This document shows positions 49,009 to 49,778 of a stretch of DNA of 64,000 nt, piece after piece. The DNA is taken from the NCBI GenBank assembly GCA_046758445.1, contig JBHIAE010000002.1:74073-138072 (forward strand), in the 5' to 3' direction. Under the pieces are notes generated by a model. The model did not search any database. It saw only the letters and a list, made by a program, of their open reading frames with translations, and had not been told where the DNA came from. Source of the stretch: Candidatus Thorarchaeota archaeon. Its GTDB lineage: Archaea; Asgardarchaeota; Thorarchaeia; Thorarchaeales; Thorarchaeaceae. A program made the position numbers and the translations under genes. Position 1 is the first letter of the stretch. Each line of letters starts with the position of its first letter.

Positions 49009-49038
49009 TTTGAGAGCCGCTCCGACTCTCGACAGGTC
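49009..49038 (+). other. 16S mini-intron 1 (30 nt, ~E. coli 908)
   Basis: Splits GACTGAA|ACTTAAAGG; GAGAG/CTCTC hairpin, relaxed BHB. Confidence 0.88.
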
Positions 49039-49482
49039 ACTTAAAGGAATTGGCGGGGGAGCACCACAAGGGGTGGAGCTTGCGGTTTAATTGGACTCAA
49101 CGCCGGAAAACTTACCCGCCCAGACAGCCGGATGAGAGCCAGACTGATGATCTTGCTCGACGAGCTGAGAGCTGGTGCATGGCCATCGTAAATTCGTGCC
49201 GTGAGGTATCAGCTTAAGTGCTGCAACGAATGAGATCCCTGCCACCTAGTTGCCAGCCGGGGGCTTCGGCCCTGTCGGGGCACACTAGGGGGACCGCCAG
49301 CGAAAAGCTGGAGGAAGGTGGGGGCCACGGTAGGTCCGTATGCCGCGATATGGGCGGGGCCACACGCGTGCTACAATGGCAAGGACAATGCGTTACGACA
49401 CCGAGAGGTGAAGTCAATCGCGAAACCTTGTCGTAGTTGGGATCGGGGGTTGGAACTCACCCCCGTGAACCTGGAATCCCTA

Positions 49483-49512
49483 TCGACTGCAGACTCCCTG
49501 TAGTCGGGGAAA
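49483..49512 (+). other. 16S mini-intron 2 (30 nt, ~E. coli 1346)
   Basis: Splits GGAATCCCTA|GTATCCG; BHB with UCCC/GGGA helix, CGACTGCAG/CTGTAGTCG stem. Confidence 0.9.
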
Positions 49513-49552
49513 GTATCCGCGTGTCACTATCGCGCGGAGAATACGTCCCTGC

Positions 49553-49582
49553 AGGGGACGTGAATCCCACGTACCCGGGGAA
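49553..49582 (+). other. 16S mini-intron 3 (30 nt, ~E. coli 1386)
   Basis: Splits GTCCCTGC|TTCTTGCACAC; CCCU/GGGG helix, ACGTG/CACGT stem. Confidence 0.88.
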
Positions 49583-49686
49583 TTCTTGCACACACCGCCC
49601 GTCGCTCCATGCGAGCGGCTTCTGGGTGAGGCGTTATCCTTTGGGTGATTACGAATCTGGGGGTCGCAAGTAGGGAGAAGTCGTAA

Positions 49687-49716
49687 CTGCGTCACACTTC
49701 GTGGCGTGGCGGAACA
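49687..49716 (+). other. 16S mini-intron 4 (30 nt, ~E. coli 1500)
   Basis: Splits AAGTCGTAA|CAAGG (junction ambiguous by +/-1); TGCGTCAC/GTGGCGTG stem. Confidence 0.88.
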
Positions 49717-49747
49717 CAAGGTATCCGTAGCGGAAGCTGCGGATGGA

Positions 49748-49778
49748 AGAAGTAGAGAGTCACTCTCGCTTCCATCAA
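49748..49778 (+). other. 16S mini-intron 5 (31 nt, just before the anti-Shine-Dalgarno)
   Basis: Splits CGGATGGA|TCACCTCCT; BHB GAUG/CAUC with GAA and AAU bulges, GAAG/CUUC and GAGAG/CUCUC stems. Confidence 0.9.

Follow-up and report, generated by a model that had tools for sequence, protein, structure and literature searches.

Thirty-nucleotide bulge-helix-bulge introns in a Thorarchaeota 16S rRNA gene, with nuclease targets as a possible explanation of their positions

The only 16S rRNA gene in the genome of a Candidatus Thorarchaeota archaeon (GenBank assembly GCA_046758445.1) is interrupted by five inserts of almost identical length, and raises the questions of what these inserts are and what determines where they lie. 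The gene is contained in a 64,000-nucleotide (64-kb) stretch of contig JBHIAE010000002.1 (positions 74,073 to 138,072; this whole stretch is the window, and coordinates below are those of the window), and is 1654 nt long with the inserts and ~1503 nt when spliced. We conclude with a probability of roughly 0.85–0.9 that the inserts are genuine archaeal bulge-helix-bulge (BHB) introns that encode no open reading frame and are presumably removed by the tRNA splicing endonuclease. Their positions appear to be best explained by the targets of nucleases, a proposal that we hold with a confidence a little better than even. The gene and its five introns are as follows, with insertion sites in Escherichia coli numbering.

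48135..49788, + strand: 16S rRNA gene, sole copy in the genome (Rfam RF01959, 1191 bits; 3' end read from the sequence)
49009..49038, + strand: intron 1, 30 nt, at 908/909; central helix 3/4, inner stem 7 bp, exon-exon helix 3 bp
49483..49512, + strand: intron 2, 30 nt, at 1346/1347; central helix 4/4, inner stem 9 bp, 5-nt loop
49553..49582, + strand: intron 3, 30 nt, at 1386/1387; central helix 4/4, 9-position stem with one mismatch
49686..49715, + strand: intron 4, 30 nt, at 1499/1500, within the 1492R primer site; central helix 3/4, inner stem 9 bp
49748..49778, + strand: intron 5, 31 nt, at 1531/1532; central helix 4/4, stem with a 2x1 internal loop

Pairwise alignment with the intron-less 16S gene (L009) of a genome of the same genus (G011), which is 95.9% identical, contains exactly five insertions, of 30, 30, 30, 30 and 31 nt (49009-49038, 49482-49511, 49553-49582, 49686-49715 and 49748-49778), and no other insertion or deletion; the gene is colinear with its G011 counterpart once they are removed. 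The original prediction, made from the sequence of the window alone, had described five such insertions between 49009 and 49778 whose removal restores a canonical 16S sequence, and the alignment matches it to the base. Boundaries were chosen by their fit to a BHB among the slides that yield an identical spliced product, which moves intron 2 by one nucleotide and leaves the others in place. We derived the E. coli positions ourselves, by counting from the landmarks of primers 907R, 1392R and 1492R. All five introns lie in universally conserved strands and not in variable regions, and four are in the last ~310 nt of the gene; intron 4 is 6 nt from A1493 and intron 5 is 3 nt ahead of the CCUCC anti-Shine-Dalgarno core, in agreement with the positions near the decoding region and before the anti-Shine-Dalgarno sequence that were first proposed. 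That none of the insertions encodes a homing endonuclease also holds, as 30-31 nt are too few to encode one. The Rfam match to archaeal small-subunit rRNA spans only 48135-49722, 66 nt short of the actual end at ~49788, because the last intron stops the model. With this model the 16S gene of the congener, which has no introns, reaches 1371.7 bits.

The metagenome-assembled genome (MAG; G000 below) is 3.25 Mb in 113 contigs, 92.7% complete and 3.95% contaminated, and inserts in such a genome could be errors of assembly or binning, or mark a decaying 16S pseudogene. The gene nevertheless sits in the middle of a 138-kb contig (the 23S gene is on a separate contig) and is the sole 16S copy, and its close match to the congener is free of any further indel. 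The same introns, diverged with compensatory changes, are present in MAGs from unrelated studies; since homologous insertions occur at the same sites in independently assembled genomes, an artefact is ruled out, and we assign this explanation as a whole a negligible probability.

In a BHB the exon ends in four helix bases followed by two bulge bases, and the intron likewise ends in four helix bases and two bulge bases. All five insertions fit this geometry, as originally proposed for their junctions, with central helices of 3, 4, 4, 3 and 4 pairs of four in introns 1 to 5, bulges of 3 nt and inner stems of 7-9 bp. When the criterion is set at a central helix of at least 3/4 pairs and at least five contiguous inner pairs, the same geometry is found at 0.1% of random 30-nt windows across the 64 kb, and when the introns are moved to random positions in the 16S gene at least 3/4 central pairs form in 15% of placements. 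The outer exon-exon helix has just 0-3 bp in the five introns, which makes the motifs relaxed and counts against the assignment; relaxed motifs are of the kind that needs a splicing enzyme of broad specificity. The genome encodes two EndA paralogues (PF01974/PF02778), a catalytic one of 195 aa that retains the Tyr, His and Lys residues and one of 250 aa without the His, together with one RtcB ligase. From its sequence, the EndA pair is the predicted two-subunit arrangement that is associated with broad specificity.

These components suggest a conventional route of removal. Four exon bases located 2 nt upstream of the 5' splice site would pair with four bases near the 3' end of the intron to form a 4-bp central helix between two 3-nt bulges, with the 9-bp hairpin of the intron as the inner helix. 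A two-subunit EndA of the alpha-beta type would cleave within both bulges, and RtcB would ligate the exons and so restore the universally conserved 16S core, as structure, covariation and gene content together lead us to infer.

The introns belong to a family found throughout the Thorarchaeota. At least one intron is present in 22 of 28 Thorarchaeota 16S genes, and we catalogued 42 mini-introns of 27-47 nt in them, of which 32 are exactly 30 nt long and 34 have a 4/4 central helix. They recur at positions 663, ~878, 1316, 1322, 1340, 1352, 1363, ~1465 and ~1498 (coordinates of the L009 16S). The common plan consists of 1 nt, a 9-bp stem strand, a 5-nt loop, the second 9-bp stem strand, the 4-nt central-helix strand and 2 nt, and the loop has the consensus AYTYC with its final C more than 90% conserved. 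Because of this shared 1+9+5+9+4+2 architecture and loop consensus, the mini-introns are, as judged from their sequences, one Thorarchaeota-wide family of uniform 30-nt hairpins, and the early description of the inserts as largely unrelated in sequence is corrected.

Covariation in this family bears directly on the proposed structure. The thirty-two 30-nt introns, from 8 sites in 20 Thorarchaeota genomes, can be aligned with their flanks without gaps, and 92.3% of cells at predicted pairs are paired, against 51.6% after shuffling and 32-45% when the partner strand is slid. Double (compensatory) changes occur at all 13 predicted pairs, with a covariation score of 1.03 versus 0.27; boundaries were the best fit among 1-3 equivalent slides, which slightly favours the structure in this test. 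Covariation extends across the exon-intron junction, such that at site 1 those genomes in which the exon strand starts with G have a matching C in the intron strand. It is because of the junction geometry, this covariation, the restored conserved sequence, and a gene set that includes RtcB and two EndA paralogues that we identify the inserts as BHB introns.

The occupancy of individual sites differs among relatives. At site 1 (908) some of these contain introns of 30-47 nt, and others introns of 740-900 nt that encode a LAGLIDADG protein. Homologues of intron 2 are present in G017 and G092, with compensatory changes in the stem, and those of intron 3 in G018, G061, G065 and G092. The site of intron 4 is occupied in 14 family genomes, and in 24 species representatives overall; within Thorarchaeota these introns are 30 nt (once 29 nt), and outside the family they are 32-50 nt, with 32 nt in Heimdallarchaeota, 33-36 nt in Micrarchaeota and 50 nt in Aenigmatarchaeota (loci L103-L112 and L120). 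Intron 5 has homologues of 31-33 nt in G017, G057, G091 and G078. Other insertions occur too; the 16S gene of G014 (L010) has a 616-nt intron at a different site, with a 183-aa open frame that has no Pfam match, and the 23S gene of the host (L002, contig C53) contains a 31-nt BHB mini-intron (14752-14782, 10-bp stem, TTCG loop) and a 216-nt intron (14810-15025) relative to two 23S genes of the same genus.

These comparisons also bear on whether the inserts might instead persist as small expansion hairpins in mature 16S rRNA. Positions 908, 1346, 1386, 1499 and 1531 belong to the conserved core of the ribosome, which would hardly accommodate 30-nt hairpins that were left in place. The insertion points include A1499/A1500 beside the decoding site, the neck strand at 1386, a position adjacent to G1338/A1339, and one 3 nt before the anti-Shine-Dalgarno sequence; they are outside the variable regions, unlike rRNA expansion segments. 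Presence and absence vary among species whose 16S genes are 96% identical, and four intron bases always complement and covary with the upstream exon, which a BHB requires and a retained hairpin does not. Although archaeal rRNAs, including those of Asgard archaea, do carry expansion segments (PMC7594248), we regard retention as highly improbable.

The window includes two tRNA genes with introns of similar size, which had been taken to suggest a common origin or a length set by the splicing endonuclease.

45773..45879, - strand: tRNA-Ala(CGC) with a 30-nt intron (Rfam tRNA 54.6 bits; ARAGORN with introns allowed)
33290..33407, - strand: tRNA-Leu(CAA) with a 32-nt intron (Rfam tRNA 43.1 bits; ARAGORN with introns allowed)

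ARAGORN finds 36 tRNAs when introns are allowed and none with the default setting, which disallows them. The two tRNA introns are indeed 30 and 32 nt, but the suggestion that the enzyme dictates their size does not stand, as tRNA introns across the genome range from 13 to 68 nt with three long ones in addition. Because these introns vary, as do the site-1499 introns outside Thorarchaeota, the endonuclease is not obviously setting the size, and the fixed 30 nt is better seen as a probable property of the intron family. A genome-wide scan for the strict 30-nt architecture with the AYTYC loop, a crude filter, returned 10 matches versus 7 in the reversed control, and by this filter the family is not detectably widespread beyond rRNA. 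Two of the 10 look real, one in the C14 copies of a repeat containing the 16S end (described below), and one a 30-nt hairpin on C40 (12887-12916, + strand) with the 1+9+5+9+4+2 plan and an ATTTC loop, lying within an ARAGORN tRNA (C40:12865-12972). The family may thus inhabit tRNA genes too.

What determines the insertion sites is a separate question, and the first indication comes from site 1. The 740-900-nt introns at this site in G024, G091 and G089 (loci L015, L091 and L092) have LAGLIDADG_3 open reading frames, and the 47-nt site-1 intron of G042 shares both its ends with these LAGLIDADG-encoding introns. The second indication is a gene located downstream of 16S in the window.

60602..62368, + strand: TnpB-like gene encoding 588 aa (PF07282, Cas12f1-like TNB domain; PDB matches to Cas12f/TnpB)
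62411..62544, + strand: tail of the TnpB gene, with three units of GTCGG followed by a guide (guides 62416-62432, 62456-62469 and 62530-62542)

The gene starts 10.8 kb downstream of the 16S 3' end, and gene and tail together occupy 60602-62545. Matches to 16S begin right after GTCGG in each unit, covering 16/17 positions in unit 1 (12 of them contiguous), 14/14 in unit 2 and 13/13 in unit 3, and in the intron-less 16S these matches span the junction of intron 2 for guide 1, of intron 4 for guide 2 and of intron 5 for guide 3. All three targets are preceded in 16S by CGGAT, and the site-3 target, for which relatives carry a guide and which is split by intron 3, is preceded by AGAAT, indicating a GRAT-type flank that would serve as the target-adjacent motif (TAM). 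The breaks are close to this motif, at 2 nt for intron 2, 10 nt for intron 3, 7 nt for intron 4 and 3 nt for intron 5. Homologous tails of 1-5 units follow intact TnpB genes in many family genomes, with the units always in the order of sites 2, 3, 4 and 5, which follows the position of the targets along 16S; the tail looks like a natural multi-guide tail, as far as can be judged from sequence comparison. The array is 5.7-12.7 kb downstream of 16S on the same contig in G000, G018, G057, G078 and G093. In relatives the TnpB orthologues are intact and 62-86% identical, and across genera the guides are kept while the spacers between units drift. There are ~10 TnpB paralogues in the genome (including those on C24, C37, C4, C15, C70, C102, C85 and C90).

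Several further observations concern these tails and the 16S end. TnpB tails carry a TTCACTCA-type motif described for Asgard-linked TnpBs. In L047 (G075:C339) the last guide unit continues directly into ~90 nt that almost exactly match the genuine sequence downstream of 16S in a congener, G078, and there is no 16S gene upstream of the guide array on that contig. A repeat module of ~240 nt joins the 3'-terminal 25-45 nt of 16S, which include a hairpin resembling intron 5, to ~200 nt of 3' flank. It is present in the window at 49713-49955 and again at 55094-55271, and in six copies on G000 contig C14 (37361-65270); copies are 78-83% identical with ragged 5' limits, and intron 5 is kept within the modules. 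The segment between the two window copies encodes ArsR, MerA and MerB and is therefore a mercury-resistance cassette. In their form without the intron, the module copies are matched by TnpB guide unit 3 over 15 nt.

We considered and set aside some other readings. Junction-spanning 11-14-mers elsewhere in the genome (C19, C1, C16 and C74) were not accepted as guides, since they fall within coding sequence, lack the GTCGG context and are as numerous as chance predicts. A role of the guides as RNA splints for exon ligation was rejected, as two of the four have the sense orientation relative to the rRNA, and an origin of the mini-introns as transposon excision scars was rejected, as they are 2-10 nt from the TAM and not at it.

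We propose that pressure from nucleases on the DNA would account for the intron positions, in that every intron site lies within a sequence that a lineage-specific endonuclease would recognise when uninterrupted. Site 1 would be a LAGLIDADG homing site, and sites 2-5 the TAM-proximal seeds of the targets of the TnpB guide array. Intron-bearing alleles would be uncuttable, and may be selected as escapes or be copied into cut intron-less alleles by repair, that is, by homing. A more specific extension, which we advance tentatively and rate a little short of even, is a split system of RNA-guided homing or addiction for introns that contain no gene, in which a linked TnpB with up to four guides is directed against uninterrupted 16S rDNA and the introns are the alleles that break the seed. 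TnpB would cut intron-less copies, whether on other chromosome copies or on incoming DNA, and repair from the linked intron-bearing gene would maintain and spread the introns along with the 16S–TnpB region; LAGLIDADG at 908 would be the protein-guided counterpart.

The overlap could instead be incidental. The introns would still be true BHB introns, but mini-introns would proliferate throughout the genome and survive only in conserved, accessible rRNA, and the tail units would be relics of IS200/IS605-type right ends, or guides with another role, and would put the introns under no pressure. The tRNA genes of this genome are intron-rich, as has been published for Asgard tRNAs (PMC11291895; bioRxiv 10.64898/2026.10.13.758758), and Thermoproteales introns likewise favour the most conserved loci (PMC4496867). 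Six of the nine distinct family sites fall inside the four 21-nt guide-target windows, for which p is by our arithmetic ~2e-6 under a uniform model but rises to ~0.02 when introns and guides are both taken to be restricted to ~300 conserved nucleotides. The fine distribution of the breaks is not readily accounted for in this way. Two 17-nt protospacers each contain two insertion points, that of site 2 being broken at reference positions 1316 (9 nt in) and 1322 in different genomes, and that of site 3 at 1352, inside the TAM, and 1363, and all of the breaks are within the TAM-proximal 10 nt. The conservation of guides and of TnpB reading frames across genera also argues against relics. With a perfect guide defined as a canonical unit with at least 12 perfect bases, and the target as the 16S of the same genome, perfect guides face an interrupted target in 9 cases and an intact one in 4, and mutated guides or repeats mostly accompany uninterrupted targets (2 interrupted, 6 intact). 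We consider the incidental explanation rather unlikely.

A number of points weigh against nuclease targets as the determinant of position, and some of them favour the incidental explanation. Beyond the weaker p value for confined features, the association of guide integrity with interruption has an odds ratio of 6.75 and a Fisher p of 0.08, and the genomes are related, such that the counts are not independent. The four perfect guides beside intact targets are guide 2 of G057 and G078, guide 4 of G052 and guide 5 of G046. A search for junction-spanning matches found no site-1 or site-3 guide in the host genome, in which introns 1 and 3 are accompanied by neither a guide nor a homing-endonuclease gene; nor were guides found in the genome that match the sites of the two 23S introns. 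In G017 and G092 introns are present and an orthologous array was not found, and the Heimdallarchaeota and Micrarchaeota genomes with a site-1499 intron do not contain the guide 14-mer. The guide matches are short, 12-17 nt, and the overlap of introns and guides might reflect no more than a common preference for the best-conserved parts of 16S. Finally, the RuvC-I and RuvC-III Asp residues of TnpB are conserved but the canonical RuvC-II Glu aligns to a Gly (VSIGKL / VAIGRL) across the TnpB clade, and does so even in ordinary multi-copy insertion-sequence copies, such that nuclease activity is only predicted. A relocated Glu is as likely as inactivation, and rearranged archaeal TnpB branches with a relocated catalytic Glu have been described (PMC10691335).

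Thermoproteales are already known to have short hairpin introns in their 16S genes; what is new is the Asgard host, the four undescribed 16S sites and the single uniform family. Jay & Inskeep (2015, PMC4496867) reported BHB introns of less than 50 nt from Thermoproteales, Desulfurococcales and Aigarchaeota, and 908 is among the 13 loci that they list. The Thorarchaeota introns are like these in being hairpins under 50 nt that lack an open reading frame, have a BHB core, interrupt conserved 16S segments and are presumed substrates of the tRNA splicing endonuclease, with locus 908 in common. They differ in their host, which is a member of the Asgard group and apparently not a thermophilic crenarchaeon, in the presence of five in one gene, and in the strict 30-nt architecture with a loop motif common to different sites. 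Sites 1346, 1386, 1499 and 1531 (and 1339, ~1375 and others in relatives) are by our own numbering outside the 13 listed loci, and the candidate nuclease for four of the sites is RNA-guided and encoded ~11 kb away instead of within a neighbouring intron. There is a precedent for an intron without a reading frame being carried along by a nuclease encoded elsewhere in Pog.S1205 of Pyrobaculum oguniense, a hairpin intron that co-converts with a homing-endonuclease intron at 1213 (PMC4496867).

The same splicing chemistry is expected for Asgard tRNA introns, in which a high intron load, non-canonical positions and a two-subunit EndA have also been described (Valentin-Alvarado 2024, PMC11291895; bioRxiv 10.64898/2026.10.13.758758). 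Those studies deal with tRNA genes only, in which the median intron is 22-23 nt and not a fixed 30 nt, and the terms 'rRNA' and 'TnpB' are absent from the text of the preprint (bioRxiv 10.64898/2026.10.13.758758). In the literature that we searched, neither Asgard rRNA mini-introns nor TnpB guides directed at rDNA are described.

In LAGLIDADG homing, intron-less alleles are cut and converted. As with the LAGLIDADG introns of rRNA genes, which occur at site 1 in relatives, the introns here would interrupt the nuclease recognition site and render the alleles that bear them immune; unlike them, the introns in the window encode nothing, and the candidate nuclease for sites 2-5 is a TnpB with guide RNAs that would act in trans. 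The arrangement also resembles the TnpB/omega-RNA homing of IS200/IS605 elements and IStrons, in that the guide matches the vacant site and the match is lost once the insert is present, and IStrons pair TnpB-type elements with a spliced intron to make the insertion harmless (PMC10690162). It differs from these systems in that the target is broken by a separate 30-nt BHB intron and not by a transposon, that one tail contains several guides directed at an rRNA gene that is essential and present in a single copy, and that splicing would be by protein enzymes and not by a group I ribozyme.

The introns have consequences for the detection of the organisms that carry them. The primer sites for 1492R, for 907/926 and at the 3' terminus are interrupted by introns 4, 1 and 5 respectively, so that 16S surveys will under-amplify such Thorarchaeota or yield products of the wrong size; rRNA models truncate the intron-bearing gene. 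Insertions at 1499/1500 split the 1492R site in several archaeal phyla (Heimdallarchaeota, Micrarchaeota and Aenigmatarchaeota). Asgard archaea are the closest prokaryotic relatives of eukaryotes, and BHB mini-introns in rRNA have been catalogued mainly in hyperthermophilic Crenarchaeota; the Asgard family adds rRNA to a known richness in tRNA introns. How archaeal introns without reading frames originate, move and persist is an old open question. The location of every site at a candidate nuclease target, the double breaks in two protospacers, and the variation of guides and introns among close relatives provide a concrete and testable hypothesis, in which nuclease sites may explain the persistence or spread of tiny introns that contain no gene.

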